A stretch of 64,000 bases of DNA from NCBI GenBank assembly GCA_029856155.1, contig JAHQWL010000055.1, forward strand, positions 64,001 through 128,000, in the 5' to 3' direction. The position numbers and the translations under genes are program-made. The stretch comes from Promethearchaeia archaeon. GTDB lineage: Archaea > Asgardarchaeota > Lokiarchaeia > Sigyniarchaeales > SOKP01. The notes beneath the pieces are model-generated. The model searched no databases. It saw nothing but the letters and a program-made list of their open reading frames with translations, and was not told where the DNA came from. Positions within the stretch are counted from its first letter, which is position 1. Each line of letters starts with the position of its first letter. This document shows positions 24,987 to 57,366 of this stretch, one piece after another.

Positions 24987-25036
24987 TTTGACTTATCCTT
25001 CCATTTTTATATTATTTAAAATAAGTTTTATTGACT

Positions 25037-26920: not shown

Positions 26921-26976
26921 TCCAAAATTTAATTCAATACCAACTTGAAATACTATTCCTATGATTATAGTTTACC

Positions 26977-27984: not shown

Positions 27985-28013
27985 ATTTCAAATCTTTTGT
28001 TTTAATTATATCT

Positions 28014-29120: not shown

Positions 29121-29158
29121 TTTTATTCTTCACTTCTTTTATTATAATCCTTTTTTAC

Positions 29159-29653
29159 TCAAATTTTTCTTCTCTTTTTTATAATTTGTTTAAATTTCAT
29201 CCCACTTAAAGCCCCAGTAAACGTACACCCATACAAGATTAAAATATTTAAATAACCCTCTCCATGAGCAAATTGTAAGATGAACGGCTCTGCAGAGAAT
29301 CCAAACATTATCCAATAAAACAAAAAACCTTCAGCTATTAATAATGGTACCATCCACAATGAGGCTTTTATCCCATAATGTGGAATTTCTTCCTTATAGG
29401 TTAATAAAAAACATATGAAAAATAACAATAAAATGGGCAAGTAGAAAGTTTGTGGATATACTTTATAGGTCCAAAACAATATTGTAGGATCCATTTCAGT
29501 ATAAGGGATCGATACCGATCTACTACTAATCAAGAGTATATTCGCGACAATTCCGAAATAACCCAATAAAACAACTATATATGCAAAAATAATTGACCCT
29601 TGTCTACCCCAGTCAATTTGGAAATGTCCCTTTATTTCTGTATCATTTGTCAA
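29159..29653 (-). CDS. Uncharacterised membrane protein (~4 TM), first gene of the opp operon
   Basis: Four hydrophobic segments and a basic C-terminus; co-oriented 38 nt upstream of oppB; TTG start. Confidence 0.7.
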   Translation of the reverse strand: MTNDTEIKGHFQIDWGRQGSIIFAYIVVLLGYFGIVANILLISSRSVSIPYTEMDPTILFWTYKVYPQTFYLPILLLFFICFLLTYKEEIPHYGIKASLWMVPLLIAEGFLFYWIMFGFSAEPFILQFAHGEGYLNILILYGCTFTGALSGMKFKQIIKKRRKI

Positions 29654-32382: not shown

Positions 32383-32838
32383 ATGAACATGAACGAAAAA
32401 ACATATATTATTGCAGATAAGAAATATCATATAATTAAAATAGGAAGATCTAAGAATCCAGACAAACGCTTGAAAACAATTCAAATAAACGGTAGTACAG
32501 AATTGGAAATCATTTGTGTTTTTGAGAAAGATATTGAAAGAGAGATAAAGGAGTTGTTGAAAAAATATAAAGTTCGAGGAGAATGGTACTTTCCTAACCC
32601 AAAGACACTGCTAGAAATCCAAGAAAATTATCTTCCTAATAATCAAGAAATAGCTTCATTAATTGATAATTTATTTGGAAAAATAGAACTGAGTGATCAA
32701 CCTATTTGCTTTTGCTGGGTAGACGATAAAGAAAGTAGATGTCAATTCAAACAACATAAAGGTTCGATTATAACTTGTGAGTCTTACGAAATTTGGAGAT
32801 CTTGTGTAAGAAAAGAAGAAATAAATTTCGGTGATTAG
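32383..32838 (+). CDS. GIY-YIG superfamily nuclease (T5orf172/Mug113-like) with Cys-rich C-terminal extension
   Basis: TYII...IKIGRSKNPDKRLKTIQ...IEREI...VRGEWY. Confidence 0.75.
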   Translation: MNMNEKTYIIADKKYHIIKIGRSKNPDKRLKTIQINGSTELEIICVFEKDIEREIKELLKKYKVRGEWYFPNPKTLLEIQENYLPNNQEIASLIDNLFGKIELSDQPICFCWVDDKESRCQFKQHKGSIITCESYEIWRSCVRKEEINFGD

Positions 32839-34254: not shown

Positions 34255-34343
34255 GCCAGCCACATTTATCAAAAATTTATCCATTAATTTAAAAGCAATT
34301 GATTCAAGGATATTATGTTAAATTATAAAATTATTCATCTCAA

Positions 34344-37386: not shown

Positions 37387-37458
37387 GAAAATGAATCATA
37401 AATTTAAAATTGAAATATATCTTTCAATTACATAAGTTAAATATACATATATAATTTA
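37387..37458 (+). promoter_or_regulatory. 72-bp upstream module, copy 2; contains the palindrome AATTGAAA-N6-TTTCAATT (37408..37429)
   Basis: 64/72 identical to 15531..15602. Confidence 0.75.
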
Positions 37459-37483
37459 AAAAGTAAGTAAAAAAAAGGAGATT

Positions 37484-38401
37484 TTGTTGGAATTTGGAGC
37501 GCAAATATTAAATTATTTTAACACATGGGAAGAAATCCTTCCGACGATTAAGCATATAGATGCAGGACCGTGGAGTAGCCTGATGTTCTCAGATCATTTT
37601 CTACCACCCTATCCTGGAGCAAATCTGGAAGCTGAATCTGCTTTAGAGAGCTGGACCATGCTCACGGCGACCGCTGCTGTTACAGAACGAGTGAGATTAG
37701 CGGTGCTTGTAACAGGCAATTTATTTCGTAATCCGGCATTACTTGCTAAAATGGCTTCCACTATAGACCAAATCTCTAAAGGTCGGCTTATCCTAGCTAT
37801 TGGTGCTGGTTGGTATGAACGAGAGCATGAGGCATTCGGTTGGAACTTTCCAGGAGTTAAGGAGAGGTGTGATCGTCTTGAAGAGGCAGTAGAGCTGATA
37901 AAAATGCTGTTTACTGCTGATGGGCCAATAGATTACAATGGTCAGTATTATAAGCTTAATCAAGCATATTTTTCGCCTCCCTGTATACAGAAGCCACATA
38001 TTCCAATCATGGTTGGAGGAAATGGAGAAAAAAGGACATTACGTACACTCGCTCGTTTCGGTGATATTGCTAATATTGATCTTAATAAACCTGGAACTCC
38101 AGAATTGTTTAGACATAAACTGGATGTGATTGAACGACATTGTGAAGAACTTGGTCGTGATCCATCTGAAATTAAAAAAACTATGGTGACTCCATTACGA
38201 ATTTTTGACGATGAAAAAGAAGCTGCCCAGTATCTTGAAAAACGTGGAAGAAAAACATGGTTATACGGTACAGTTCCATATATAATTGAACGAGTTCAGC
38301 AATATATCGATGCTGGTGCCGAGGAGATCATATTTAGTGGTCTATCCACCGTTGAATGGGCTGAGCAAGTAGAAGACAAGATTTTTCCAGCGTTTAGCTG
38401 A
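37484..38401 (+). CDS. LLM-class (probably F420-dependent) oxidoreductase, copy 1
   Basis: SDHF, RNPALLAKMASTIDQISKGRLILAIGAGW, IMVGGNGEKRTL. Start is probably the TTG at 37487, by comparison with the paralog. Confidence 0.9.
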   Translation: MLEFGAQILNYFNTWEEILPTIKHIDAGPWSSLMFSDHFLPPYPGANLEAESALESWTMLTATAAVTERVRLAVLVTGNLFRNPALLAKMASTIDQISKGRLILAIGAGWYEREHEAFGWNFPGVKERCDRLEEAVELIKMLFTADGPIDYNGQYYKLNQAYFSPPCIQKPHIPIMVGGNGEKRTLRTLARFGDIANIDLNKPGTPELFRHKLDVIERHCEELGRDPSEIKKTMVTPLRIFDDEKEAAQYLEKRGRKTWLYGTVPYIIERVQQYIDAGAEEIIFSGLSTVEWAEQVEDKIFPAFS

Positions 38402-38469
38402 GATTTTTTTATTTTTAAAAATAAGTTCCGTGTAGTATCTTCAAATGACCAGAAAACAAATATTGAGAA

Positions 38470-39375
38470 ATGAAAGGATTAATTTATGACATTCAAAGGT
38501 TTGCCATTCATGATGGTCCAGGAATTAGGACCTTAATTTACATGAAAGGATGCCCCCTTAGATGTTTATGGTGTTCTTCACCTCACACGCAAAAAAAGTC
38601 TCCAGAAATTCTCTATCTTGAGTCAAATTGTAAAGGATGCTTGAGCTGTGTTGAGGCGTGTCCAGAAAAAGCCATTAAACTTTCTGATAATGAGAAAATA
38701 ACGATAGATAGAAACATTTGTAATACCTGTGGTCAGTGTGTTGAAACATGCCCTAACGACGCTTTAAGACTTGTAGGAAAACAAATAACGGTAGAAGAAC
38801 TATTCCAAGATGTAATGAAGGACAATCCCTTTTACAGAAGGTCAAAAGGAGGGGTCACGGTAGGGGGCGGTGAACCTACTATGCAACATGAATTTGTCGC
38901 GAATTTTCTTAAGAAATGTAAGGAAACGTATATTCACGCAGCAATCGAAACCTGCGGATATGCAAAATGGGAAAGTTTGGAAAATATCCTCGATTATGTA
39001 GATCTCCTCTATTTTGACATTAAGCACATGGATTCAAACATCCACAAAAAAATTACGGGGATTTCAAACGAAATAATCTTAGAGAATGCAAGAAAAGCTT
39101 CTAAATTGAAACCACTTATAATCCGCATTCCTCTAATACCGGATATTAACGATTCTGAAGAAAATATTTTAAAAACGGCAGGGTTCGCTGCCGAATTAGG
39201 AGAAAATCTACTGTGGATTGAACTTCTACCTTACCACAAGTTTGGAATTGTTACTTATGAGCAACTTGGTCGAGAGTATGAACTCAAGGATGTTGAACCT
39301 CCGAGCGAAGAACACATGAAAAAATTAAAGGCGCTCGTTGAGTCCTGTGGTGTAAAGGCTCAAATAGGTGGATAA
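38470..39375 (+). CDS. Glycyl-radical enzyme activating protein (radical SAM with ferredoxin insert)
   Basis: IQRFAIHDGPGIRT, GCPLRCLWC (CxxxCxxC), two CxxCxxCxxxC, GGVTVGGGEP, LLPYH. Confidence 0.95.
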   Translation: MKGLIYDIQRFAIHDGPGIRTLIYMKGCPLRCLWCSSPHTQKKSPEILYLESNCKGCLSCVEACPEKAIKLSDNEKITIDRNICNTCGQCVETCPNDALRLVGKQITVEELFQDVMKDNPFYRRSKGGVTVGGGEPTMQHEFVANFLKKCKETYIHAAIETCGYAKWESLENILDYVDLLYFDIKHMDSNIHKKITGISNEIILENARKASKLKPLIIRIPLIPDINDSEENILKTAGFAAELGENLLWIELLPYHKFGIVTYEQLGREYELKDVEPPSEEHMKKLKALVESCGVKAQIGG

Positions 39376-39394
39376 TACCTCTTAAAAAATCCAT

Positions 39395-41482
39395 CTACAT
39401 TTTTTCGACTCGACATAAAAGAGCTTTTGTTGATACTGAAGCTGTTATTGAATCCTTTGGGCCATCGTCTGTAATTTGATTAATGTTTAACTTTTCCCAC
39501 CCATCTTCTCTTCCATACCAGAACCCGTGAGGTGTGTGAACAATTTTTGGATGTGTCTCCTCGAAGTACTTAACTTTAACCTCAACTTTACCTCTTGGTG
39601 AAACCAAATGAACCCACTCTCCGTCTTCAATTCCTAGACTTTTACATGTATCAGGATGTATTTCAAGTTCAGGATCCGGTGCGTTTTTCCTAAGAGATGG
39701 AATATTTCGAAATGAGGAATGATAATAGGACAAGATTCTCCTCCCTGTGGTTAATACAAGAGGGTATTTCTTCCATAGATCAGGGGTGCTAACAGGGCTT
39801 TCTGGTGGTTCCTTATACGCAGGAATAGGATTTAAACCCCATTCTTCAAAATACTTTGGACACAATCCAATTTTACCCGATGGTGTATTAAACCTACCCC
39901 TTTTTTCATACAATTTGTATTTCATGGGAAGAGAAAATTTGCCGACTTTTTTAAATTCCTCAAATGTCATCCCAATAGGTTCTAAGCGATAATTGAGAGA
40001 TTCTTCAACTGTCTGCCAATAGTCTTTGAGACCCATTTTTTTAGCGAGTTCAACTAAGATTTCTTTTTCGCAACGACACTCTGGAACGGGTTCTACAGCT
40101 TTCACTTGACAGAAAACATGGTTTTTCATGCTCAAATCTTCAATATCATCCCTTTCTGTCCAATGCGCTGCTGGAAGCACGACATCCGCCATTTGTGTGG
40201 TAGGTGTGTGGAAGTAATCCACGGAAAATAGAAATTCTAAAGCATTTAAAGCTTCCTTGACATGTTTAGAGTTAGCATATGCACACATGGGATTAGTAGC
40301 AAACAATCCAATGGTTTTAACAGGATACGGGTCTTCCTTAAGAATAGCATCCCATACTAATTCAGGAGTTACTGACATTCCTGTGAAGCGTATCCCTGGA
40401 AATTTATCACGACCTATTTTTTTCTTTGCTTGTTCAGCTGATAACGCGATTTCATATTGATAGTCGCCCCCATAACAACTCCGCGCTTTTGTTGGAGGTA
40501 CATGACTTACATTTCCTCCTTTAATGTCTAAATTTCCGGTAATCGCGGCTAAAATGGTGAGTGAGCGTGTGAGATCGAAAACATTAATTGATTGGCAGGC
40601 ACCACCAGGACCAGGACCCATCGCAGCAGGCTTAGTTGTAGCATAGGTGATCGCTGCCGCTTCTATCTCTTCAGATGGAATCCATGTTAATTCAGCAACA
40701 CGGTCCAAATTGAATTCTGAGGCACGTTCCTTTAACTGGTCAAAACCTTCGGTCCATTTTTCTACGAATTCTTTATCGTATAGTTCATTTTCAATGATTA
40801 CGTTTATGAAACAAAGAGCCAATGCTACATCAGTTCCAGGTCTAATGGCAAGCCAGTGATCTGCTTTGCGTGTATATGAATTACCTCTAGGATCAACAAC
40901 AATGAGTTTAGCTCCTGCTTTTAAACCTTTTCTAATGAAATAATTATAAATTCCGGGGTATGATTTTTCAGGATTATGTGCCCACAACAATATGCATTTA
41001 CTATTCCCATAGTCAGGATCGAGTATTCCAAATCCAGCGGTGAGAGAGCTTGCGAGGACAATAGGAGCACCGCTCATGTGACCAGCTGACATGAAATTAG
41101 GTGTCCCAAATAGACTCATAAAGCGGTAAATCCAAGGTGGCATGCCTCTTGTCGTGCCTTGACCAAATACGACGGATTCAGCCCCCCATTTTTCTCGCGT
41201 TTCAAGGAGTTTTTTAGCTATAGTGTCAAGAGCTTTTTCCCAAGATACTTCCTCAAACTTTCCTTCTCCTCGTTTCCCAACTCTTATCAATGGTTTGGTC
41301 AGTCGTTCAGGATGATATATTATCTCCATACATGCCCTCCCTTTTGGGCACATATATCCATGGCTTATGGGATGGTCCTTGTCTCCTTTTACTCCCACTA
41401 TTTTTCCATCTTTTACTTCGAGAAGCACACCACAACGGGAGTGACAGTCAAAACAGATCGTTCGAACAGTTTTAGTACTCAT
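39395..41482 (-). CDS. Mo/W-bisPGD oxidoreductase of the acetylene-hydratase-like clade, single subunit
   Basis: CFDCHSRC...C FS0, RFMSLFGTPN, IRPGTD, DPYPVK, TPTTQMADVVLPAAHWTER, TPSGKI, PHGFW. Confidence 0.8.
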   Translation of the reverse strand: MSTKTVRTICFDCHSRCGVLLEVKDGKIVGVKGDKDHPISHGYMCPKGRACMEIIYHPERLTKPLIRVGKRGEGKFEEVSWEKALDTIAKKLLETREKWGAESVVFGQGTTRGMPPWIYRFMSLFGTPNFMSAGHMSGAPIVLASSLTAGFGILDPDYGNSKCILLWAHNPEKSYPGIYNYFIRKGLKAGAKLIVVDPRGNSYTRKADHWLAIRPGTDVALALCFINVIIENELYDKEFVEKWTEGFDQLKERASEFNLDRVAELTWIPSEEIEAAAITYATTKPAAMGPGPGGACQSINVFDLTRSLTILAAITGNLDIKGGNVSHVPPTKARSCYGGDYQYEIALSAEQAKKKIGRDKFPGIRFTGMSVTPELVWDAILKEDPYPVKTIGLFATNPMCAYANSKHVKEALNALEFLFSVDYFHTPTTQMADVVLPAAHWTERDDIEDLSMKNHVFCQVKAVEPVPECRCEKEILVELAKKMGLKDYWQTVEESLNYRLEPIGMTFEEFKKVGKFSLPMKYKLYEKRGRFNTPSGKIGLCPKYFEEWGLNPIPAYKEPPESPVSTPDLWKKYPLVLTTGRRILSYYHSSFRNIPSLRKNAPDPELEIHPDTCKSLGIEDGEWVHLVSPRGKVEVKVKYFEETHPKIVHTPHGFWYGREDGWEKLNINQITDDGPKDSITASVSTKALLCRVEKM

Positions 41483-41731
41483 ACCCTACTCAATTTTAGC
41501 AATTTTAACAATTTTAGTATTTATGAATATTTCTTTATTTATAATCTTTCAAATCAGAGATTGAAAATGTTAATATCTAATCTTTTCGCTTTCCCATAAA
41601 GATATTATAATAAAAAATATTAAAATCGGAATAAAATATACAGCATATATTTAAAAATTTCTAATCCCTAATATAAACAGTAGTTAATTTTTTCATCCTT
41701 TTAAAATAATTTAGAAGAGAAGTTTCGAAAA

Positions 41732-44206
41732 ATGGTGCAGATTATAGAGAAAGCAGATAAATCGAAACCCGAATCTTTATTGGAAAGAGTATTAACTGTA
41801 CAGCCAACTGAGAGAGTGGAGAGGCATAGGCAACGCTATATAGACCGTAAACTTGTATACTCGATTGATAGAGATCGTATTGAAGTGAGGGTTATGAAGG
41901 AAACAGAAGGTGAGCCGATGATAACTCGCAAAGCGAAGCTCTTTCAAACCATAGTTAGAGAGTTACCCATCGACATCTTTCCAGATGAGCTTTTAGTCGG
42001 TTGGTATGATCCTATACCAAACAACTGCCCTCTTCCTGTAAGAAGTGACCCTAATCTAGAAAATTATCTCGATGTTATTAGTAGTCGAGAACGCAATCCA
42101 ATTTTAATTACCCCAGAACAGATGAGAGAATTAAAAGAGGAAATTATTCCCTACTGGAAGGGGCAAGGCAATTGGGAAAGAACACGCCATGATCCTGCTC
42201 ATTACAAGCCAGTTCCTAAGGGATTTACTTTTGAAAGGTGGTATAATGAGAGTAGAACGATGGCATATTGGCATATTGGTCACTTCATTCCCAATAATGA
42301 AAAAGTATTGAAAAAGGGATTTTTGGGAATAAAGAAGGATGCTGAGGAAAGGTTGGGAAGGATCGATCGGACCAATCCTGAAGAGGTCAAAAAAATACCC
42401 TTCCTTGAAGGTGTGATTATGGTTATGGAAGCCGCAGCTTCCATCGGTAAGCGTTTTGCTACCAGGGCAAGAGAATTAGCCGAAAAGGAAGTAGATTCTA
42501 AAAGGAAGGCTGAATTACTCAAAATAGCTGAAGTGTGCGATTGGGTACCCGCAAATCCCGCGAGAACATTCTACGAAGCGATACAATCAATCTGGTTTTC
42601 ACATATCCTTCATTGGTGGGAAATCCGTGATGTGGCATCCATTAGTCCTGGAAGAATGGATCAGTATCTGTATCCTTACTATGAAGCCGATATAAGAGAG
42701 GGGAGAATTACCAAAAATGAAGCACAGGAACTTATTGATTGCTTCCTTCTAAGACCTTCATGGTTTCTTTATAGTTTAAACACCCCAAAAGGTTATCTTC
42801 TAACGGATACTGCCGGAATTGCACAGCATGTTGATGTAGGTGGTCTCAGATCAGATGGAACCGATGCTACTACTGAACTTTCATACATGATTCTTGAGGG
42901 TATGATGCATACCAGATTAGTAGAACCTGATGTAGGAATCTTGCTTCACAGTAGAACACCTGAAGATCTCCTCATTAAGGCCTGTCAGCTTTGTGCACTT
43001 GGAACAGGTCATCCTGAATTTCTCAATCATGATAACTTTATTGTTAATCTCCTTGGCCGAGCGACATACGGTGGAGATTCACCAATAACACTGGAGATTG
43101 CCAGAAAGGCTAGTGCAATGGGCTGCGCTGAGCCATCTTTAGCTGGTATGGATTCTGGGTATTGTACCTCAGTTTATATCCCATTACTTCCAGGAGTCTT
43201 AATATCGGTGTTGACAAATGGAAGGAGGGGCTGGCTCGAAGGAATTACAGCTCCTAAAACCGGAGATCCTAACAACTTCAAAAGCTTTGAAGAATTACGG
43301 GAAGCATTTAGAAAACAACTCGTCTGGGGATTTGATATGGAGACAATTGCCACCAATATTGGCGAGAGACTTATGGCCGAATACGACCCAACTATATATC
43401 AATCAGCACTCATAGAGGACTGCATTGAAAAAGGGTTATGCAGGGAAGAAGGTGGAGCTAGGTTTAATTTTGGGCCATTCGTATCATGTGTTGGTGTTAC
43501 CGATGTCGGAGATTCCTTGGCCGCTATTAAAAAACTTGTGTTTGAAGAAAAAAAGATTACTATAGACCAGTTGGTCGATGCATTGGATAAGAATTTTGAA
43601 GGTTACGAAGACTTGCGCCAAATGTTGTTAAAAGTACCTAAATTTGGAAATGACAACGACTATGCCGATGAACAAACAGCGTGGGTAATGCGCACTTTCG
43701 CTCAAGAAGCGATAAAACAAAAAAATACGCGTGGTGGTCGAAAAATACCGGTTCACATACCTTTAAGTAGCTATGTCAGAGCTGGTGCGGCTGTAGGAGC
43801 ACTCCCTTCTGGAAGACTAGCCGAAGAACCGCTAGCAGATTCACTCGCGCCCACGAAAGGTAGCGATGTTAGTGGTCCTACTGCGGTTTTCAAGTCAGTA
43901 GGTAAGATCAACCATGCCGAGGTTTTCGCAGGAATTTCCTGCAATATGAGGCTAGATCCAGTGATGTTCAAGGAAGATTATGGCTTCAAAAGGTTTGCAG
44001 ATCTAATGAGAGTTTTTGTCGACCAGAAAATACATCATATCCAGTTTAATGTAATTTCATCAGATACATTAAAGGCAGCCCAAAAAGAACCCGATAAATA
44101 CAGGGATTTAATGGTGAGAGTAGCTGGGTATGTAGCTCGATTTGTTGAGCTGCCTGAGTCGGTACAAGATAGTATTATCGATCGAACGGTACATGGTTCA
44201 TATTAA
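41732..44206 (+). CDS. Glycyl radical enzyme, unclassified (PflD/eliminase-like)
   Basis: Cys loop MGCAEP (Cys codon 43124..43126), Gly loop RVAGY (Gly codon 44126..44128), SPGRMDQY, PKFGND, HIQFNV. Confidence 0.93.
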   Translation: MVQIIEKADKSKPESLLERVLTVQPTERVERHRQRYIDRKLVYSIDRDRIEVRVMKETEGEPMITRKAKLFQTIVRELPIDIFPDELLVGWYDPIPNNCPLPVRSDPNLENYLDVISSRERNPILITPEQMRELKEEIIPYWKGQGNWERTRHDPAHYKPVPKGFTFERWYNESRTMAYWHIGHFIPNNEKVLKKGFLGIKKDAEERLGRIDRTNPEEVKKIPFLEGVIMVMEAAASIGKRFATRARELAEKEVDSKRKAELLKIAEVCDWVPANPARTFYEAIQSIWFSHILHWWEIRDVASISPGRMDQYLYPYYEADIREGRITKNEAQELIDCFLLRPSWFLYSLNTPKGYLLTDTAGIAQHVDVGGLRSDGTDATTELSYMILEGMMHTRLVEPDVGILLHSRTPEDLLIKACQLCALGTGHPEFLNHDNFIVNLLGRATYGGDSPITLEIARKASAMGCAEPSLAGMDSGYCTSVYIPLLPGVLISVLTNGRRGWLEGITAPKTGDPNNFKSFEELREAFRKQLVWGFDMETIATNIGERLMAEYDPTIYQSALIEDCIEKGLCREEGGARFNFGPFVSCVGVTDVGDSLAAIKKLVFEEKKITIDQLVDALDKNFEGYEDLRQMLLKVPKFGNDNDYADEQTAWVMRTFAQEAIKQKNTRGGRKIPVHIPLSSYVRAGAAVGALPSGRLAEEPLADSLAPTKGSDVSGPTAVFKSVGKINHAEVFAGISCNMRLDPVMFKEDYGFKRFADLMRVFVDQKIHHIQFNVISSDTLKAAQKEPDKYRDLMVRVAGYVARFVELPESVQDSIIDRTVHGSY

Positions 44207-44244
44207 TAATTGTTAATTTTAAAAATTTATTTCTTTTTTTAACT

Positions 44245-45156
44245 TTAGATAAATTCTGAGAGGATCTCATTATTTAAACGCTTATATAGTTCCGCTTTGG
44301 ATGGGACGCTCCCAAAAATGAGCTCTTCAACACCAACATCCAAATATTCTTGGATGCGATTGATAATAAAAGAGGTAGAGCCAGTTAACGTCCAATCTCC
44401 TCGTATTTTGCGATATCTTATTGCTTTTTTCTCGTCATTTTCTAGATGAATGGGCATATGTAAAGTCTTCTTTATTTCCTTTGGATCACGCCCAAATTCT
44501 TCACAGTGGCGCTCTAAGACTTCAATTTTACGTTTAAACATTTCGGGGGATCCTGGTGCGTTAAAATCAAGATTACAAATATCTCCAAACCTTGCCAATG
44601 TTCTTAATGTTCGTTTTTCTCCGTTTCCTCCTATTAAAATCGGCATATGTGGTTTCTGCGTACAAGGCGGTGAAAAGTAAGCGTTTTTCAGCGTGTAATA
44701 CTGTCCATTGTAACTAACTGGTCCTTCTGTTGTAAAGAGTAACTTGATCAGCTCTACTGCCTCTTCGAGACGATCGCTTCGTTCTTTAGCACTTGGAAAT
44801 TCCCAACCGAAGGCTTCATATTCTCGCTTATACCAACCGGCGCCAATTCCAAGGATAAACCGACCACCTGAAATTTGGTCCACGGTTGCCGCCATCTTTG
44901 CTAATAAGGCAGGATTGCGGTATGTATTGCCTGATACAAGAACACCTAATCGTAAGCGCTCTGTAACTGTAGCAGCTGCAGTTATAAGCGACCACCCCTC
45001 TAAAGCATCTTTATGCTCTACATTATCTCCAATTGGTGGAAAAAAATGGTCCGAGACCCAAAGACTGGACCACGGTCCTGACTCTACAGTTTTAATTGTG
45101 GAAAGAATACTTTCCCATGAGGTCAAATAATTATTTATCTGGGCACCAAATTGCAT
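44245..45156 (-). CDS. LLM-class (probably F420-dependent) oxidoreductase, copy 2
   Basis: SDHF, YRNPALLAKMAATVDQISGGRFILGIGAGW; close paralog of 37484..38401. Confidence 0.9.
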   Translation of the reverse strand: MQFGAQINNYLTSWESILSTIKTVESGPWSSLWVSDHFFPPIGDNVEHKDALEGWSLITAAATVTERLRLGVLVSGNTYRNPALLAKMAATVDQISGGRFILGIGAGWYKREYEAFGWEFPSAKERSDRLEEAVELIKLLFTTEGPVSYNGQYYTLKNAYFSPPCTQKPHMPILIGGNGEKRTLRTLARFGDICNLDFNAPGSPEMFKRKIEVLERHCEEFGRDPKEIKKTLHMPIHLENDEKKAIRYRKIRGDWTLTGSTSFIINRIQEYLDVGVEELIFGSVPSKAELYKRLNNEILSEFI

Positions 45157-45270
45157 TGATAATCCTCTTCTATTACATAAAAGTTAATTCTTAAATTAGA
45201 TTTTTTAAATAATAATAGTTTTTTTAAAATTTAATAGTTGTTTTATTGCTTTCAAGATTTATAATATTCA

Positions 45271-46950
45271 ATGTCAAAAAAAATACATGGTGGAGATATT
45301 TTAGTTAAATGTCTCCTTGAGGAGAATGTTAAATACTTGTTTGGGATTCCTGGTGGTCAACTCCTCCCAATGTATGACGCAATTTATCAATGGGGTAGAG
45401 AAAAAGGAATTAGTACCGTATTATTTCGCCACGAACAAGTTGCAGCTCACGCAGCTGATGCTTATGCCCGAGTCACTAATACACCTGGGGTATGTTTTGG
45501 AACTGTAGGACCAGGAGCTTTGCACCTATTACCTGGAATAGGAGCTGCGTGGAGCGATAATGTTCCGGTAGTTGCTATAGTACCCCAGGTAAATGCACAA
45601 TATGAAGATTCTTTCATTCTCCAAGGTAATTTAGATCAGATTGCATTGTTCAAACCAATTACTAAGTATCAAAAGTCGATTAGAAGAATAGAAGAAATTC
45701 CTGATGCTGTACATAAGATATTTCGAGAAGTAAGTAGTGGACGACCACAACCTGTGGTTTTGGAGGTTTTTTCGGATGCATTTTATGATAACATTGAAGA
45801 AGATCATTTATCTATCTTGCCTTCTAATCAATATCGAGCAATAAAAAAACCTGCTGTAGATATCTCTTTAATAAAAGAATCTCTGGAATTACTAATATCA
45901 GCTAAAAAACCACTAATCGTATCTGGTGGCGGAGTTTTAAGAGCTGAAGCATGGAACGAGTTAAAGGAGCTTGCTGAATATTTACAAATACCCGTTATTA
46001 CAAGCCTTGGAGGAACAGGATCTTTTTCGAATAAATCTAAATGTTTTCTTGGGGGTTTAAATTTGTTTTCAGTCCAAGCTACGGTAGGAGCAGATGTAGT
46101 ATTAGCCCTTGGTGTTAAATTTTCATATACCTTAGCACTCGGAAAACCACCAGCTTGGGAGGATTCTCAAAAATTAATCCATGTTGATATAGATCCATCC
46201 ATAATTGGAAGATCGAAACCAATAACATTGGGTATTGTAGCTGATTGCAAACAATATTTAACACAATTACTAACAGAACTAAAAAAAAGTATTCATGTTG
46301 AAAAAAGAGATTGGTTGGAAACTTTAGTCACCAATAAAAAAAAATATCACGCTACTTTTATAAAAAAAGCTAACACCAATGAAATTCCGATTACTCCTGT
46401 AAGAATGGTTAAAGAAGTTTATGAATTTATGGATGAGGATGCTATTTTAATCACCGATGGAGGAGACCTTACTGTTTTTGCGGTAGAATCTATAAACTTA
46501 TATAAGGATCGAAAACCCTTATCATACCTTCAAGCAATTGGGATGGGACACCTTGGTGTATCCGTAGGCTACGGAATTGGGGCAAAGTTAGGAAAACCTG
46601 ATAAACAGGTGATTGCTATCTGTGGAGATGGGAGCTTCATGATAAACATCCAAGATTTAGAAACAGCAGTCAGATTAGGATTGAAAAATTTAATTTTTAT
46701 AATTGGGAACAATTCTTGCTGGGGAATGATTAAGAGTGACCAAGTTTTTAAATTTAATAATCGCTTTATTGACGTAGACTTGCCTTATTGCAATTTCGGG
46801 AAAATAGCTGAATCCTTTGGATGCTACGGTGAGGAAGTTGTAGATCCTAATGAAATTAATCCTGCTTTAGAGCGTGCAAAAAATTCGGAAAAACCCGCGG
46901 TTATAGATGTTAAAATTAAATTTGAAAGCTCCAGTATGTCTGGAGGATAA
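45271..46950 (+). CDS. ThDP-dependent enzyme, acetolactate synthase/2-hydroxyacyl-CoA lyase (IlvB-like) family
   Basis: HGG, RHEQ, GPG, DGGD and the GDGSF...NN ThDP motif; no small regulatory subunit adjacent. Confidence 0.88.
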   Translation: MSKKIHGGDILVKCLLEENVKYLFGIPGGQLLPMYDAIYQWGREKGISTVLFRHEQVAAHAADAYARVTNTPGVCFGTVGPGALHLLPGIGAAWSDNVPVVAIVPQVNAQYEDSFILQGNLDQIALFKPITKYQKSIRRIEEIPDAVHKIFREVSSGRPQPVVLEVFSDAFYDNIEEDHLSILPSNQYRAIKKPAVDISLIKESLELLISAKKPLIVSGGGVLRAEAWNELKELAEYLQIPVITSLGGTGSFSNKSKCFLGGLNLFSVQATVGADVVLALGVKFSYTLALGKPPAWEDSQKLIHVDIDPSIIGRSKPITLGIVADCKQYLTQLLTELKKSIHVEKRDWLETLVTNKKKYHATFIKKANTNEIPITPVRMVKEVYEFMDEDAILITDGGDLTVFAVESINLYKDRKPLSYLQAIGMGHLGVSVGYGIGAKLGKPDKQVIAICGDGSFMINIQDLETAVRLGLKNLIFIIGNNSCWGMIKSDQVFKFNNRFIDVDLPYCNFGKIAESFGCYGEEVVDPNEINPALERAKNSEKPAVIDVKIKFESSSMSGG

Positions 46951-46968
46951 TCGTTAAGTAATTAATTG

Positions 46969-48288
46969 TTAATCAAATTTAAGAGAATACAAAATATCTC
47001 TTAAATTTTCAGAATAATAATTAGCGTTGGCATAAATGCTAATGACAATCCGATGATCATCTTTTTCAACCGAAAGATGGATGCTTATAATCTTAAAAAT
47101 ACCTGCGTATTTATATTCAATAACACTTTCATAAGCAGGTGTTCCGTCTCTTAAAGTTTTCGGTTCATTGGAAATAATATTTATATCTCTTGCTATATCC
47201 TTGATTCGTCCTGCAATTTGTTGGGCAGTTTCATCTAATGGTCGATCATGTATCGAAGATTTAATAACAGAAATCAAAAGATCAATACCAGGCTCTTTAG
47301 TGGCAATTAAGACCGGTTTATTCTCTGGAAAGTTCATTGGGTTTGGTTTCAATTCTATAAAACTTTCGGGGTAATATATGGAAAAAACAGGCGTATAGCT
47401 TTTAAAGATCTTCGATTTTTTTTCACTTTTTGCCTTAAATCCTTCATGCAATTCTAAAGTATCTTCACTAATGCACTCAAACCGAGACTTTACCAATGGT
47501 ATGTATTCTGGATGAGTTAAAACATAAAATATGTCGTTTTTAATTGCTTTAATCACTAATTCTGCCAAATATTCTGGAGCCATTGCTCCCGCCAAGATTC
47601 TATTCATATTTTCCCTACTAATTTCTGATTGTTTAATCGTTTCTGCTGGTGGTTGCCAAACACCTGGTCGGTTTTGTCTAAATATATGTGTATTATTTAT
47701 AATATTTGTATTAACACGCCCAGGACAAACTACAGATACGCCCACATTTGTATTAAAGCATTCTAAAGCCAAAGATTCAGAAATTGCGATTACAGCGGAT
47801 TTAGATGTAGGATATGGTGAATTGTCACCTGAAAGTAATCCTGCCATTGATGAAGTATTAACAATATGGCATGGTTCTTCACTTGTTAACATTCGATTTA
47901 AAAAATGTTGAATACCATAGATAACCCCAAAAACATTAACACCAAGAATCCAATTCCAATTTTCAAGTGTAATTAAACTAATGCGCCCAGCTCCTCCGAC
48001 CCCCGCATTGTTACAAAGTATATTTACGGACCCAAAACGTTCATAAGAAGCATCTGCTAATTGGGCCACCTGTTCTGGGTCACTCACATCTGTTATTTGA
48101 GTCATTACTTCAGTCCCGATTTCTTCAAGTTCTTTTGCTACCTTATCTAGATTTTCTTTATCGATGTCTGCTAGGACAATTTTCATCCCCCGTTTAGCAA
48201 AACCATAAGCAAGTCCACGCCCAATACCACTTGCCGCTCCCGTAATTACAGCAACCTTTCCTTTAAAATCTTTTATCATAATGTTCAC
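46969..48288 (-). CDS. Short-chain dehydrogenase with a ~150-aa C-terminal extra domain (PsbP/Mog1-like by pattern)
   Basis: TGAASGIG, NNAG, YPTSK. Start may be the ATG at 48279. Confidence 0.85.
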   Translation of the reverse strand: MNIMIKDFKGKVAVITGAASGIGRGLAYGFAKRGMKIVLADIDKENLDKVAKELEEIGTEVMTQITDVSDPEQVAQLADASYERFGSVNILCNNAGVGGAGRISLITLENWNWILGVNVFGVIYGIQHFLNRMLTSEEPCHIVNTSSMAGLLSGDNSPYPTSKSAVIAISESLALECFNTNVGVSVVCPGRVNTNIINNTHIFRQNRPGVWQPPAETIKQSEISRENMNRILAGAMAPEYLAELVIKAIKNDIFYVLTHPEYIPLVKSRFECISEDTLELHEGFKAKSEKKSKIFKSYTPVFSIYYPESFIELKPNPMNFPENKPVLIATKEPGIDLLISVIKSSIHDRPLDETAQQIAGRIKDIARDINIISNEPKTLRDGTPAYESVIEYKYAGIFKIISIHLSVEKDDHRIVISIYANANYYSENLRDILYSLKFD

Positions 48289-48432
48289 ATCAATTTATAT
48301 TCGAAATTAGACCTTCTTTACTTAAAAGAAATTCATACTATGCTAATATGCCAAAGCTGTTAAATATAATAAAACTTAGTTACATATAATTTTCTATAAA
48401 AATCACTGATTATTATATATAAAAACTTAAAA

Positions 48433-49203
48433 GTGAAACATATGGAAGTATTAGATGGGAAAGTAGCCTTAATAACTGGTGGCTCGAGTGGTATTGGGAA
48501 ATGTATCGCTCTAACATATGCCAAAGCAGGAGCCAGTGTTGTGGTTGCAAGCCGAAAACAGGAGAATCTCGATAAAGTAGTTGAAGAAATCAGAGCATTT
48601 GGGAGGGAATCGCTTGCTATATCTACTGATGTTAAGATTCCGGAACAGGTTGAAAATATGGTTAAACAAACAGTAGATCATTTTGGACGACTTGATATAA
48701 TGGTTAACAACGCTGGTAGGGGGATCCCGACTCAACCATTAGATATCTCTGTCAAAGAATGGAATCATGTCCTTGCTCTCAATCTCACGGGGGTTTTTCT
48801 TGGAAGTTTGGCTGCTGGTAAGGTAATGATTGAGCAGAAACAAGGTAAAATTATCAATATAGCCTCAACGGCGGGAGTTATAATGTCTCCGGGAATGATG
48901 CATTATTCTGTTGCAAAAGCAGGTGTCATCATGCTAACTAAAAATTTAGCAGCTTCATGGGCGGAGCATAACATTAATGTAAATTGTATTGCTCCGGGGT
49001 TCACATTGACCGAAAGAATAATACAATGGGGGATATTAGCTCCTGAACAATATGATGATAGTACACCTCGACTATTACGTCCTCCAGTTCCTAAAAATAT
49101 CGCTGATCTGGCTCTTTTTCTCGCTTCGCCAGCGTCCGATCAAATAACCGGTGAACTTCTAATTATAAGGAGTCATTTTTCTTGGGATCGTGGATCCCAA
49201 TAA
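48433..49203 (+). CDS. Classical SDR oxidoreductase (FabG-like family)
   Basis: TGGSSGIG, NNAG, YSVAK, NCIAPG. Confidence 0.92.
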   Translation: MKHMEVLDGKVALITGGSSGIGKCIALTYAKAGASVVVASRKQENLDKVVEEIRAFGRESLAISTDVKIPEQVENMVKQTVDHFGRLDIMVNNAGRGIPTQPLDISVKEWNHVLALNLTGVFLGSLAAGKVMIEQKQGKIINIASTAGVIMSPGMMHYSVAKAGVIMLTKNLAASWAEHNINVNCIAPGFTLTERIIQWGILAPEQYDDSTPRLLRPPVPKNIADLALFLASPASDQITGELLIIRSHFSWDRGSQ

Positions 49204-49285: not shown

Positions 49286-50650
49286 ATGAAAGAAATAGAT
49301 TTATTCGATAAGATTTATGGAGCTTGGACTGGAAAAGTTGCGGGAGGTACATTTGGGATGCCAGTTGAGGGAAGATCTCGCGTTGTCATTACTAACATGC
49401 ACCCTCCTTTAGACGGATGGAGCAAGCATCATAAACAAGGTATAAATGATGATGAACAATATGAATTAATAACTATATTAGCATTAGAAGAATTAAGTGA
49501 TGATGAATTTGCGAATAAGTTTAAAGCGGGAACAATTTTGGAACCAGACTATCTTGGATCATATTGGTTGAAGTATTTACTCCCTCAGTATGTATTTACA
49601 GCAGAAAAAGCAGCGTATGATAACGCAAAAGATGGTGTCCCTTGGGAACATGCAGGTGATTACGTTTATGAGCATAAAGGTAAAGTCTATGGAAATGAGT
49701 ATGCTGATTGGATTGGAGCACAAATGAAGGGAGAATTATATGGAATGTTACTCCCTGCATGGGGTTGGTATGAAGATTCCAAAAATGATCTAGAATTATT
49801 AAAACCATGCTTAGATTTATCACTTCAAGATGCAATAATTGCTCATAGAGAGGTAGGAATTGTAGGGGAATTATTCATCTCAGCCATTATTGCAGTAGCA
49901 ATAGCACATAACCCATTTGAATATAAGGAAGAGATAAACTTCCCAAAGTCAGCAGTTCATAGATGGGATAAGGAAGAAGACGAGATTTCTGAAGGATTTA
50001 AGCAACAAGTTGACCAGGCGGGGATTTGTTCTGAAACTATAATCAGTGATATTAAACGCATTAAATCAGTCTTGCTAGAATATGCTTCTTTAAAAGATTC
50101 GATATCAACTGAAGACGTAGAAGTATATTATAGCTTTATTGATCCTATAATCGATACCTACCTCGATAATCCAGATTCAAGAGAGTGGGAAACCAATTTT
50201 TATGCTAAAACTAAAAAAGATTGGCAAAAAACTTTGGATGGTTTATGGTGGCTATTTGAAAGAAAAATGGTAAAAGATGCAATTTCCAGATTTAAAGATT
50301 TTCCAAGCATGCTCGAACGACGATTAAATTCCTTTAGTAAAAGTAAAGCTGTTCATACATTATTCAATAATGGTGCAATTATTGTCGGTTTATTATATGG
50401 GGATGGAGATTTCATTCAGACGGTGCGTATTAGTACCTTATGTGGAGCTGATACCGATTGCAATGCTGGCAACGCAGGAGCAATCATTGGTGCTTATTTA
50501 GGTCAGAAATTAATTCCATCATATGCGAAGCGTTTCATTCGCGGAGAAATAATACCTGGTCTTAAGGAATGGAAAGATAAATCAATATACAACCTTGCAG
50601 AGAGAACACTAACTCAAGCAGAACGTTTCAAGAGGTTTATGTCCCTTTAA
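49286..50650 (+). CDS. ADP-ribosylglycohydrolase-family protein
   Basis: KIYGAWTGKVAGGTFGMPVEG, NDDEQY, FTAE, WIGAQM, GADTDCNAGNAGAIIG. Confidence 0.85.
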   Translation: MKEIDLFDKIYGAWTGKVAGGTFGMPVEGRSRVVITNMHPPLDGWSKHHKQGINDDEQYELITILALEELSDDEFANKFKAGTILEPDYLGSYWLKYLLPQYVFTAEKAAYDNAKDGVPWEHAGDYVYEHKGKVYGNEYADWIGAQMKGELYGMLLPAWGWYEDSKNDLELLKPCLDLSLQDAIIAHREVGIVGELFISAIIAVAIAHNPFEYKEEINFPKSAVHRWDKEEDEISEGFKQQVDQAGICSETIISDIKRIKSVLLEYASLKDSISTEDVEVYYSFIDPIIDTYLDNPDSREWETNFYAKTKKDWQKTLDGLWWLFERKMVKDAISRFKDFPSMLERRLNSFSKSKAVHTLFNNGAIIVGLLYGDGDFIQTVRISTLCGADTDCNAGNAGAIIGAYLGQKLIPSYAKRFIRGEIIPGLKEWKDKSIYNLAERTLTQAERFKRFMSL

Positions 50651-50702: not shown

Positions 50703-51695
50703 ATGTTGAAAAAAGACTGGCAATTGCATCACGTTTGTCTCGTTGTTAGGAACTGGAATAACGCTTTGGATTATTATCAAAGTACAAGAATGGGGTTAAG
50801 TGTAGGTCCTCAAGCAATGTACATGGATTATCGGCATGGCGGACCCGCCGATATCTACGCTAATGATAAAGTTCCAAGGGTAAGTGGTGGTTCTGGACCA
50901 GGAAAACCTCTGAAAGTGGAATCAAAACAAGGAAGAAGAGAAAATAACTATAAGTTTATGGATAAAGACTGCCTAGTTGGGGATCTACTCCTTGAAATTG
51001 GGGAAAATCAAGGTATTCCATTAGAGGGAATTACCCACGTATGTTTCAATGTCCCAGATATCTACGCAGAAACGGATAAACTGCTGAAAAAAGGCTGCGA
51101 TCTCATGTGGAGTATTACTCAGGGTGATAATCTTTTGGAAAATCACATCGACACTCGTAAGTATGGTAACGTGGATATATCATTCAGACCTCCTGTACTC
51201 AAGCTTGAAAGAGCATGGTTAGATCATCATCTTTCGTATCCTTATCTAAAGGATTGGAAATTCCATGGAATTGGTATTGGAGTTCGGGATCTTGATAAAG
51301 CAGTTGAATACTACGAGATGCTGGATATTATCGATTTTCAAAACGAAACTGATCTTGATGGCAATTCACTTGACTCAATTAACGTATCAAGCGAAACTAT
51401 AGATTTAAATTTCAAGACGAGAGCCATTGTTGGTAAAATTGGTCCAATGGCTTTTGAGTTTATTCAACCTCTTGAAGGAAATTCTGTCTATCAAGAATCC
51501 CTTGACAGTAGAGGTGAAGGTGTTGCCGATCTTGCCTTTACAGTAGAGGATCTCGAGAAAGAAGCCGCAACCATGATATATAGGGGCATCCCCGTAGTAC
51601 TCAGCGGTAAACCTAAGAATGGTCCTGCCTTTGCTCGCTTTGATACTCGTAAAAATAGCGGTAATATCATGATAAGACTGATCCAAAGAGAATAA
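50703..51695 (+). CDS. VOC/glyoxalase-superfamily protein (methylmalonyl-CoA epimerase-like, two modules)
   Basis: HHVCLVVR...EGITHVCFNV, and a second module HGIGIGVRDLDKA...EFIQP...RGEGVADLAFTVEDLE. Confidence 0.8.
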   Translation: MLKKDWQLHHVCLVVRNWNNALDYYQSTRMGLSVGPQAMYMDYRHGGPADIYANDKVPRVSGGSGPGKPLKVESKQGRRENNYKFMDKDCLVGDLLLEIGENQGIPLEGITHVCFNVPDIYAETDKLLKKGCDLMWSITQGDNLLENHIDTRKYGNVDISFRPPVLKLERAWLDHHLSYPYLKDWKFHGIGIGVRDLDKAVEYYEMLDIIDFQNETDLDGNSLDSINVSSETIDLNFKTRAIVGKIGPMAFEFIQPLEGNSVYQESLDSRGEGVADLAFTVEDLEKEAATMIYRGIPVVLSGKPKNGPAFARFDTRKNSGNIMIRLIQRE

Positions 51696-51702: not shown

Positions 51703-52416
51703 ATGGATACTGAAAAAATATGGAAAGAAGGTGAATGGACAATTGAAGCACGTCAGATAATTGATGGGCTTAAAGAGTTCCCTGACAATTCAAAAATAAT
51801 CCTAATTTTAAGACATTCCCATCGAAATGAACCGACAGCATTAGAAAAAGCTCAAAAATTAAGATTAACACCCCAAGGTCATACAATTGCTAAGAAGTTC
51901 GGCGAGAATTTACCTATTAATAGACCTATCAACATTTTCCACAGCATTATATGGCGATGCAAAGAAACGGCTCAAAATATTCATGAGGGATTTAAAAATA
52001 TTGGCGGAACAAGTGAAATAAAGGGAGTACTTACAGCTCTCGCTGATGTTGGAATTACTAATAGGGAGTTTTTTTTGAATGAATTTAATAATTTTCCTGT
52101 ACTTGACACCTTTTATCGATGGGTGGTTGGTCATTATGATCTTATTTATTGGAAACCGTTCATCGAGTATTGTCAATCAACTGCTCTCACTATTCTGGAC
52201 CAAGTTAAAACCTCTCCTGAAAATGGGTTGAATATTTTTGTAACTCATGACTTTAATGTAATGGCTCTTAGATTTGGATGGTTTGCGCTTCTACCAGACA
52301 AATGGGTGAAATTTCTAGGTGGATTTGCATTCACGATAGAAGAGGATCAAATCTTGCTTTTAGATTATGGCGAATTAAAACCAGTACCAATTCCATATTG
52401 GTGGAAAAAATCATGA
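51703..52416 (+). CDS. Histidine phosphatase superfamily protein
   Basis: LRHS, LTPQG, RCKETA, VTHD. Confidence 0.85.
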   Translation: MDTEKIWKEGEWTIEARQIIDGLKEFPDNSKIILILRHSHRNEPTALEKAQKLRLTPQGHTIAKKFGENLPINRPINIFHSIIWRCKETAQNIHEGFKNIGGTSEIKGVLTALADVGITNREFFLNEFNNFPVLDTFYRWVVGHYDLIYWKPFIEYCQSTALTILDQVKTSPENGLNIFVTHDFNVMALRFGWFALLPDKWVKFLGGFAFTIEEDQILLLDYGELKPVPIPYWWKKS

Positions 52417-56866: not shown

Positions 56867-56947
56867 TTACTCTTTGCTACAGAAATTCATTGAGTTTAAA
56901 TCATCATGGATGACAAACCTCTGAATGTCGTAAATAAATCCTTTCAT
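56867..56947 (-). pseudogene. 5' relic of a glycyl-radical activating enzyme gene
   Basis: MKGFIYDIQRFVIHD, then unrelated sequence. The reverse complement of 56902..56956 is 50/55 identical to 38461..38515. Confidence 0.8.
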
Positions 56948-57051
56948 TTCTCAATATCTATGTTCTGTACATATGTGGATAAAATCTTGAATTTCTTTAT
57001 TTAAATAAACAAAACGTTTAAATGTTAAGTGTTAAGTTGATTTTTAAGTTT

Positions 57052-57366
57052 TTAATGATTTTTGGGATGTAAAAACTTCAACCAATAAGATCCAAGATAG
57101 TTTGGTTCCAAAATTGTCCCGGCTTTTAACCTATTAGCAAAATCATCATCACTTAATGCTTCTAATGCTAATAAAGATATCAATTCATATTGTTCATCAT
57201 CATTTACAACTTGTCTATGATGCTTGCTCCATCCGCTTAAAGAAGGGTGCATATTAGTAATGACTTCGCGACGTTTTCCTTCGACAGGCATCCCAAATGT
57301 GCCTCCTGCAATTTTTCCTGTCCAGCTACCCCAAATTTTTTGGAGCAAAAAATTTTTATCAACCAT
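57052..57366 (-). pseudogene. Truncated ADP-ribosylglycohydrolase paralog (N-terminal ~100 aa only)
   Basis: Closely matches aa 1-100 of 49286..50650, then stops; the DTDCN motif is missing. Confidence 0.85.

Follow-up and report, generated by a model that had tools for sequence, protein, structure and literature searches.

The stretch of DNA analyzed here (64,000 nt, contig JAHQWL010000055.1:64001-128000; hereinafter, the window) comes from a metagenome-assembled genome (MAG; denoted G000) of 4.1 Mb that is 97% complete, and the nearest homologues of the proteins it encodes are found in MAGs of Promethearchaeota (Lokiarchaeial Asgard archaea) and in marine-sediment metagenomes. The window contains a gene island centered on a glycyl radical enzyme (GRE) that, judging by its motifs, combines the catalytic set of the GRE 1,2-eliminases with pocket residues of its own. 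In relatives, this GRE recurs next to F420-type luciferase-like (LLM) oxidoreductases, frequently next to a molybdenum or tungsten (Mo/W) enzyme and, most constantly, with an importer of the Opp/Dpp type (23292-32129 in the window) the ATPases of which are fused to membrane domains. We see an even chance that the island is a real Lokiarchaeial catabolic cluster, an elaborated member of a module that consists of an Opp-type importer, a GRE and its activase, and that it works by the stepwise scheme outlined below. No known group is closer to eukaryotes than the Asgard archaea, and little is known of the carbon sources that they use in sediments. All parts of the cluster belong to known superfamilies; domains and families were assigned with Pfam and NCBIfam profiles, membership in the latter being decided by the equivalog cut-offs.

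The genes of the island follow each other in the order LLM1> activase> Mo/W< GRE> LLM2< ThDP (thiamine diphosphate enzyme)> SDR439< SDR256>, where the last two encode short-chain dehydrogenases/reductases (SDRs), and are succeeded by genes for an ADP-ribosylglycohydrolase (ARH), a vicinal oxygen chelate (VOC) protein and a histidine-phosphatase-like (HisPhos-like) protein (Table 1). An earlier note on the same DNA described an anaerobic radical catabolic island at 37387-49203; the genes it named, their order and their orientation are all borne out by the Pfam and NCBIfam profiles, except that the first open reading frame (ORF) begins at 37484, not at 37387. The two LLMs, taken in that note for paralogues in inverted orientation, are indeed 62% identical, and their genes form an inverted DNA repeat of 568 nt with 72% identity. 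The Mo/W and GRE genes diverge from a 249-bp spacer that was suspected of being a shared promoter; an alignment of 12 loci reveals two A/T-rich blocks that are kept throughout, one of them being the invariant element ATTTAAAAATTT about 70 nt ahead of the GRE start, and such conservation appears consistent with divergent archaeal promoters. The core is also more GC-rich, as had been remarked, with GC of 0.38-0.42 and GC at third codon positions (GC3) of 0.29-0.35 in the five core genes against typical values of 0.30-0.36 and 0.20-0.28, respectively; the rise is mild, and some other genes of the window reach the same values.

Pocket residues and motifs of the GRE were compared among 28 orthologues. 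The window protein contains the glycyl loop RVAGY at positions 796-800, with Gly799, and the Cys loop GCAEP at 464-468 (Cys465-Ala-Glu467), with a single cysteine; most of the 28 orthologues carry GCNEP at this position. As the criterion for an eliminase we used a Glu at Cys+2 combined with a His at the position of His164 of glycerol dehydratase (GDH), which is Asp in CutC. In phmmer alignments to 1r8w, 6vxc and 5i2a, His184 of the GRE aligns with GDH His164 and HypD His160, and both Glu467 and His184 are conserved in the 28 orthologues. By this comparison, the GRE carries the catalytic set of the 1,2-eliminases and not the Cys-Cys pair of pyruvate formate-lyase (PFL); the PFL profile TIGR01255 yields 115 bits against 994. 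With the known 1,2-eliminases (1R8W, CutC, 6VXC and 5I2A), the protein shares the two-domain fold, the RVxGY and G-C-x-E loops, the equivalent of His184, the SISPGRxDQY strand and an activase with a ferredoxin insert. Its genomic partners, in contrast, are not the aldehyde dehydrogenases or microcompartment genes of the known eliminase loci but F420 LLMs, a Mo/W enzyme and an Opp importer.

The GRE does not belong to any of the characterized families; membership in a characterized cluster with a known context is what the earlier note had named as refuting its proposal. With 458-489 bits in the PDB comparison, it is about equidistant from CutC, GDH (1R8W), HypD (6VXC) and propanediol dehydratase (5I2A), and it scores far below all the NCBIfam equivalog cut-offs (HpsG, 548 bits against 1000; HypD, 530 against 1100; CutC, 508 against 1050; HpfG, 453 against 1000). 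The best equivalog of the activase is the HypD activase, at 356 bits, below the cut-off of 425. Compared with GDH, the pocket of the GRE shows the replacements Y339A, N341H, I343D, H446C, D447T, L639H and Y640I; the resulting residues (Ala364, His366, Asp368, Cys478, Thr479, His675 and Ile676) are conserved among the 28 orthologues and differ from those of every solved GRE. In particular, the substrate residues of glycerol dehydratase, Tyr339, Asp447 and Tyr640, are not kept, their places being taken by Ala364, Thr479 and Ile676. Given that two tyrosines are replaced by small residues whereas His and Asp are gained, the pocket would seem suited to a substrate that is larger and polar and that may bear an amine. 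In phylogenetic analysis (IQ-TREE), the orthologue group is monophyletic with support of 100/100 and comprises four subclades.

The host genome encodes seven GRE paralogues. An apparent conserved in-frame TAA in one group of GRE paralogues turned out to be the terminal stop codon only. The sister clade of the orthologue group, with 47-58% identity, forms tandem arrays, including five copies on one metagenomic contig (L092; LAZR01000216.1) and further arrays at L094 and L099; at the loci of this clade, SDR genes are present, and LLM, Mo and Opp genes were not seen. Further homologues of the GRE, with 58-64% identity, occur in Dehalococcoidia and Desulfobacterales.

Orthologues of the GRE were surveyed in 400 Asgard species-representative genomes and in metagenome contigs. 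At an identity of at least 78%, they are present in only 4 of the 400 genomes, two of them from genus g1 (G000, G233) and two from genus g22 (G239, G251). The genomic context was tabulated for 27 loci with a GRE of at least 75% identity, a partner being scored as missing only where at least 2.5 kb was visible on both sides. An LLM gene adjoins the GRE gene in 20 of the 27 loci and is missing in none; the Mo/W gene is found in 15 and missing in two (L083 and L030), the ThDP gene in six and missing in five, and the SDR439 gene in four and missing in five. The Mo gene occurs in four arrangements relative to the GRE gene (Mo< GRE>; GRE> Mo<; Mo> LLM< GRE>; and Mo> GRE>), and the loci in which the two are linked are spread over three of the four GRE subclades; in the arrangement that lacks the Mo gene, a VOC gene abuts the LLM or GRE gene. 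The identities of Mo and GRE fall in step (89-94% for Mo with 83-95% for GRE, and 85-87% with 79-81%), and no Mo orthologue with more than 84% identity was seen apart from a GRE. The recurrence of the same genes around GRE orthologues in 27 loci other than the window shows the arrangement to be more than a chance juxtaposition, a possibility that the earlier note had named as fatal to its proposal. Co-occurrence of the GRE with the Mo and LLM genes, the test it had suggested, gave a divided result: the LLM is never missing where the flanks are visible, but the Mo gene is not obligatory and homologues of both partners occur also in the absence of the GRE. The partner set is conserved rather than a one-off; the ThDP and SDR439 genes are restricted to one arrangement, that of the window (arrangement A).

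The distribution of the GRE is patchy (4 of 400 genomes), and the window protein is closer to that of genus g22 (94%) than to that of its congener (78%). Horizontal transfer is nevertheless not established; this reading is weakened by unrelated flanking genes that are also 82-93% identical to those of the g22 genome and by the mildness of the GC shift.

The importer, which the earlier note did not include, links the island to a broader module. In 11 loci (L029, L030, L081, L088, L089, L113, L136, L170, L080, L118 and L139), orthologues of the Opp genes with 66-92% identity are located directly upstream, in the order OppA< p164> OppBCDF> [ARH>] LLM> ... GRE>, and these loci cover every type of arrangement; in the window, the Opp block is inverted relative to the cluster and displaced by 5 kb. 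In a survey of 135 genomes of the taxonomic family, OppD with at least 76% identity was found solely in the four genomes that bear the GRE. OppA orthologues in L030 and L170 are 50% identical to the window protein, and a PDB search with OppA found no relative. Furthermore, paralogous Opp operons, with OppD identity of 61-66%, are present in 11 other genomes, and each is followed immediately by one to four tandem GRE genes (four consecutive ones in G024) and a convergent activase gene; these GREs are 32-36% identical to that of the window. Thus, the order importer, GRE(s), activase is a conserved Lokiarchaeial module of which the present cluster is an elaborated member, and these observations suggest that GREs coupled to importers have radiated in this family.

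Both LLMs exceed the cut-off of TIGR03560, if marginally, and F420-dependent alcohol dehydrogenase (Adf, 1RHC) is among the best PDB matches, at 79 bits; the LLM fold is common to them and to the F420-dependent LLMs in general (TIGR03560, Adf, Mer and Fgd), with only remote similarity to the characterized members. The capacity to make F420, which the earlier note proposed to check, is present in the host genome, where CofD (311 bits against 257), CofE (273 against 181) and CofH (457 against 374) are encoded. An exclusive attachment of the LLM to the GRE is ruled out by homologues with 70-72% identity located away from GREs. The ThDP enzyme contains all three ThDP domains and falls below all equivalog cut-offs (for acetolactate synthase [ALS], 400 bits against 538); its best PDB matches are BbmA (241 bits), ALS (231) and oxalyl-CoA decarboxylase (OXC; 226), and its similarities to ALS, to OXC or 2-hydroxyacyl-CoA lyase, and to Gcl are about equal.

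The Mo/W enzyme is a bis(pyranopterin guanine dinucleotide) (bisPGD) protein, one of at least three encoded in the host genome. Its best PDB match is acetylene hydratase (2e7z; 367 bits, E 1.6e-108), ahead of polysulfide and thiosulfate reductases and formate dehydrogenases. The best NCBIfam score is that of the formate dehydrogenase alpha subunit (330 bits, below the cut-off of 666), with PhsA at 326 against 694. With the acetylene hydratase of Pelobacter acetylenicus (2E7Z), the enzyme shares the architecture of a cytoplasmic monomeric bisPGD protein of about 700 amino acids (aa), with an N-terminal Cys4 [4Fe-4S] site and the bridging Lys; an export signal for twin-arginine translocation (TAT) is absent, given that the Fe-S motif begins at residue 10. 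The catalytic residues, in contrast, differ. Ser137 aligns with the tungsten ligand Cys141 of acetylene hydratase and with the Cys of polysulfide reductase (Psr), His14 replaces Asp13, and the hydrophobic ring is not kept, with Ile14, Ile142 and Trp179 being replaced by Ser, Gly and Tyr, respectively. The positions of Ser137 and His14 are invariant in 121 homologues with 58-92% identity, the hosts of which are Asgard archaea, Spirochaetota and Desulfobacterota, Desulfosudis oleivorans among the last, and therefore the Ser/His proteins constitute a distinct, widespread, uncharacterized subfamily. The dN/dS of 0.07-0.08 indicates strong purifying selection on the Mo gene. Because the enzyme is acetylene-hydratase-like, the hydration or (de)hydroxylation that the earlier note had envisaged is a fair reading.

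Among 301 Desulfobacteria genomes, 26 encode one copy of the Ser/His protein, and the Asgard and sulfate-reducer proteins are about 60% identical. In 22 Mo loci (20 bacterial and two of Asgard paralogues), a Zn-dependent alcohol dehydrogenase (Zn-ADH) gene is directly downstream in 10, and other common neighbors encode a TetR regulator, a QueG-like Fe-S/HEAT protein, a regulator of the GntR/FadR type and an acyl-CoA ligase. The Desulfobacteria loci (L143-L162) frequently show the order QueG-like Fe-S/HEAT protein, TetR, Mo, Zn-ADH, with a divergent gene for the GntR/FadR-type regulator. This arrangement is a lead to the function of the subfamily, and the Zn-ADH partner fits a Mo enzyme with an alcohol or carbonyl as its product or substrate. 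Among Asgard Mo paralogues, those with 62% identity adjoin genes of the major facilitator superfamily (MFS) and those with 43-46% adjoin AMP-binding genes; no GRE was found beside either group.

In the scheme that we propose, the Opp-type importer would take up a small organic substrate, and the activase, using S-adenosylmethionine, would put a radical on Gly799 of the GRE, from where it would move to Cys465. The thiyl radical would then take a hydrogen from the substrate, with Glu467 and His184 aiding a 1,2-elimination, and the product would be a carbonyl or an imine formed after loss of a hydroxyl- or amine-type group. One or two F420-dependent LLMs might reduce the C=O or C=N bond of this product or, alternatively, make the hydroxylated substrate; LLM imine reductases that depend on F420H2 are known from the biosynthesis of 4-alkylprolines and would be a precedent for the reduction of a cyclic imine. 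The Ser-ligated Mo/W enzyme, a frequent but dispensable accessory, would add or remove a hydroxyl on a related intermediate, by hydration or hydroxyl transfer, and in the arrangement of the window the ThDP enzyme, the SDRs and the VOC protein might handle the carbonyl products further. The reaction type, the order of the steps and every substrate are such as we infer, and so is the coupling of the radical, Mo/W and F420 chemistries in one pathway; the sequence data themselves establish what the genes are, which catalytic motifs they encode, that their linkage is conserved and that the host can make F420. The earlier note had postulated an undescribed pathway of this kind; its conserved partner set stands, but the importer, the most constant partner, was overlooked, and molybdenum cofactor (Moco) biosynthesis is not recognized in the host's own genome.

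Two classes of substrate come into question. One would be a polar compound that contains nitrogen and stems from peptides or conjugates; it is suggested by the Opp linkage, by the His and Asp of the pocket, by the genes for ARH and the phosphatase-like protein, and by the fact that the best equivalog of the activase is the HypD activase. The other would be a lipid-derived diol or ether, a possibility prompted by the nearby genes for a long-chain acyl-CoA synthetase, an acyl-CoA dehydrogenase (ACAD), an enoyl-CoA hydratase (ECH), a 3-hydroxyacyl-CoA dehydrogenase (3HCDH), an alkyl sulfatase and esterases, along with the FadR-type regulators beside the bacterial Mo orthologues.

A bolder form of this interpretation, which we advance tentatively and would put below an even chance, is that the cluster encodes a new anaerobic pathway in which a radical elimination of an undescribed kind by a GRE with a novel pocket, acting on an imported substrate, is combined with F420 LLMs and a new class of Ser-ligated Mo/W enzymes, within a diversified set of importer-coupled GRE modules. 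If true, this would be the first F420-linked GRE pathway. The literature searched describes neither of the two enzyme subfamilies (that of the GRE and that of the Ser/His Mo/W enzyme), nor the pairing of GRE and LLM, nor the importer-GRE module, nor any link of F420 to GRE metabolism. The GRE subfamily with its own pocket and the Ser/His Mo/W subfamily both lack a characterized member, and either could yield new chemistry; the systematic wiring of GREs to Opp importers makes the GRE substrates experimentally approachable.

Several observations weigh against the proposed scheme. A profile search of G000 for molybdopterin genes found MoaA below the cut-offs and no match for MoaC, MoaE, MoeA_N or Mob_synth_C, and the tungstate transporter WtpA had no match in this genome either. 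Of the 53 genomes of the genus, 39 encode MoaC, G251 and G233 among them, and it is absent from the Mo-bearing G239; the gap in G000 might be explained by genes on unbinned contigs, by uptake of the cofactor or by a role of the protein that needs no pterin. The genome G233, which is 99% complete and carries the GRE, two LLMs, VOC and SDR256, has no Mo orthologue (the best match is 35% identical) and no activase within 10 kb of the GRE, so that the Mo enzyme is linked to the GRE but dispensable. Six or seven genomes that lack the GRE encode the 70-72% LLM homologues, and the contexts of these genes are unrelated. Neither a GRE nor an LLM was found beside the bacterial Mo orthologues (0 of 20 Desulfobacteria loci), and among these loci and the Asgard Mo paralogues no GRE-Mo linkage was found outside the GRE orthologue group. 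The loci of the linkage table are closely related (GRE identity of 76-95%), and the repeated adjacency is thus not fully independent evidence. Finally, no residue-level evidence names a substrate.

The most probable alternative is that the functional unit consists of the importer, LLM, GRE and activase, whereas the Mo/W enzyme, the ThDP enzyme, the SDRs, ARH and the VOC protein are fellow-travelling neighbors with separate roles. The GRE of G233 without a Mo gene, the confinement of the ThDP and SDR439 genes to arrangement A, the wide occurrence of the Mo family without a GRE, the simple modules of Opp, GRE and activase without such partners, and the lack of recognized Moco biosynthesis genes in G000 all speak for this smaller unit. 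However, the Mo gene stays beside the GRE gene through four rearrangements and in three of the four subclades, and its orthologues above 84% identity have never been seen away from the GRE. We consider the smaller unit unlikely, while taking it seriously.

An aromatic (polyphenol) pathway, in which the Mo enzyme would be of the soluble catechol dehydroxylase type and the GRE, LLM, SDRs and ThDP enzyme would handle reduced ring intermediates, seems improbable. Acetylene hydratase is reported to have its nearest relatives among the catechol dehydroxylases (Dadh, Cldh and Dodh), and small soluble forms of the latter lack a TAT signal and adjoin MFS transporters (PMC7028382); MFS genes also adjoin the Asgard paralogues with 62% identity to the Mo enzyme. 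Yet no gene for a small 4Fe-4S partner protein lies beside the Mo gene here, in a comparison with the dehydroxylases that was by published description only (PMC7028382). Moreover, the bacterial Mo orthologues are accompanied by Zn-ADH and by TetR or FadR-type regulators, not by genes of aromatic pathways, and the wider neighborhood in the window is of an aliphatic or lipid character (acyl-CoA synthetase, ACAD, ECH and 3HCDH).

Asgard GREs have mostly been read as hydrocarbon-activating, on weak grounds: the published ones were assigned as alkylsuccinate or benzylsuccinate synthases (Ass/Bss) because they have only one active-site Cys and identities of about 30% (PMC8163825). The GRE described here shares with these proteins the phylum, the single active-site Cys and the activase with a ferredoxin insert, and genes for beta-oxidation and an acyl-CoA synthetase are located nearby; unlike them, it possesses the eliminase Glu/His pair and is linked to an importer for polar solutes as the constant partner. 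Its scores with the fumarate-adding enzymes are 282 bits (benzylsuccinate synthase, 4pkc) and 306 bits (MasD, 9o8u), compared with 420-490 for the eliminases, and no genes for the beta or gamma small subunits were noticed among the called ORFs. The hydrocarbon reading is not supported for this GRE, and it is very improbable that the enzyme adds fumarate. Least credible of all is the idea that the Mo/W protein acts as a genuine acetylene hydratase, or as a formate dehydrogenase in the service of a PFL-like GRE: for all that acetylene hydratase and the formate dehydrogenase alpha subunit are the best PDB and NCBIfam matches of the Mo/W enzyme, the replacement of the Cys or Sec ligand by an invariant Ser, the other residue changes listed above, a formate dehydrogenase score half of the cut-off, and a GRE that has no Cys-Cys pair and matches PFL so poorly speak against it, and the residues compared contradict it already.

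Returning to the cluster proposed here, its features and those of its surroundings in the window are collected in Table 1.

Table 1. Features of the importer block, the GRE island and the adjoining genes in the window, with module loci of other genomes
Feature	Coordinates	Strand	Evidence and occurrence
OppF, OppD (both with fused membrane domains), OppC, OppB, 164-aa membrane protein	23292..29653	-	Pfam ABC_tran+oligo_HPY, BPD_transp_1
OppA-like family-5 solute-binding protein, 760 aa	29847..32129	+	Pfam SBP_bac_5
T5orf172/MUG113-domain protein	32383..32838	+	Pfam; orthologues (74-83%) beside GRE in L083, L085, L089, L113 (arrangements B, C)
LLM1, F420-type luciferase-like oxidoreductase	37484..38401	+	TIGR03560, 232.4 bits vs 231.4
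GRE-activating radical-SAM enzyme with two-ferredoxin (Fer4) insert	38470..39375	+	TIGR02494, 362 bits vs 174
Cytoplasmic bisPGD Mo/W enzyme, acetylene-hydratase-like	39395..41482	-	Pfam Fe4S4, Molybdopterin, Molydop_binding; PDB 2e7z
Divergent Mo<>GRE intergenic region, two conserved A/T-rich blocks	41483..41731	.	Alignment of 12 loci
Glycyl radical enzyme, predicted eliminase type	41732..44206	+	PF02901, 567 bits; PF01228, 99 bits
LLM2, F420-type oxidoreductase	44245..45156	-	TIGR03560, 245.3 bits vs 231.4
ALS/oxalyl-CoA-decarboxylase-like ThDP enzyme	45271..46950	+	Pfam TPP_enzyme N/M/C; arrangement A only
SDR439, 439 aa, unassigned C-terminal extension of ~150 aa	46969..48288	-	Pfam adh_short; arrangement A only
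SDR256, classical SDR, 256 aa	48433..49203	+	Pfam adh_short; two copies in some relatives
ADP-ribosylglycohydrolase-family protein (ARH)	49286..50650	+	PF03747; upstream of LLM1 in most relatives
Two-domain VOC/glyoxalase-fold protein	50703..51695	+	Pfam; in 8 loci; adjoins LLM/GRE in arrangement C
Histidine-phosphatase-like protein	51703..52416	+	Weak Pfam match; syntenic with VOC gene
Rearrangement scar	56902..57349	-	Inverted repeats; DNA alignment, 90% column identity
Long-chain acyl-CoA synthetase	57504..59696	+	NF006134, 693 bits vs 625; directly after HisPhos gene in L081, L089
Opp>GRE>activase modules (L172-L183)			G024:C26, G002:C3, G014:C129, G004:C100, G008:C59, G015:C65, G212:C4, G225:C81, G238:C14, G209:C8, G237:C27

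Downstream of the island, the scar holds, in inverted orientation, 281 nt copied from the ARH gene at its 5' end (49300-49580; about 87-90% identical) and a 112-nt copy of the junction between LLM1 and the activase gene (38404-38515); it was left by a rearrangement or by the loss of a second copy. Two ABC exporter genes (52556-56851) split the run of VOC, HisPhos-like and acyl-CoA synthetase genes, which is contiguous in L081 and L089; because the HisPhos-like and acyl-CoA synthetase genes are adjacent in these two loci, the exporters look inserted. Rfam and tRNA scans of the window found nothing. In one related locus (L027:3340-4497, Hel_238 MAG), a 385-aa ORF without a Pfam family is located between the GRE and LLM2 genes.

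Upstream, the window encodes a second bisPGD protein of the Mo/W type (764 aa, 10720-13014, minus strand) that is 29% identical to the first, with a divergent gene (13326-15527, plus strand) for a paralogue (62% identity) of the long-chain acyl-CoA synthetase. The left part (757-9221 and 18680-23256) further contains genes for an alkyl sulfatase of the metallo-beta-lactamase type, an alpha-L-fucosidase, an Fe-dependent alcohol dehydrogenase, a carboxylesterase, a beta-lactamase-fold protein and a GH32 protein; several of the hydrolytic and catabolic genes in this part are 82-93% identical to those of the genus-g22 genome (L171). Between the importer and the island, a direct repeat of 93 nt with 77% identity is present at 34354-34446 and 35672-35764; the second copy lies in the 3' part of an unassigned 199-aa gene, and the first, in a gene-free gap (34161-34563), may be a gene fragment.

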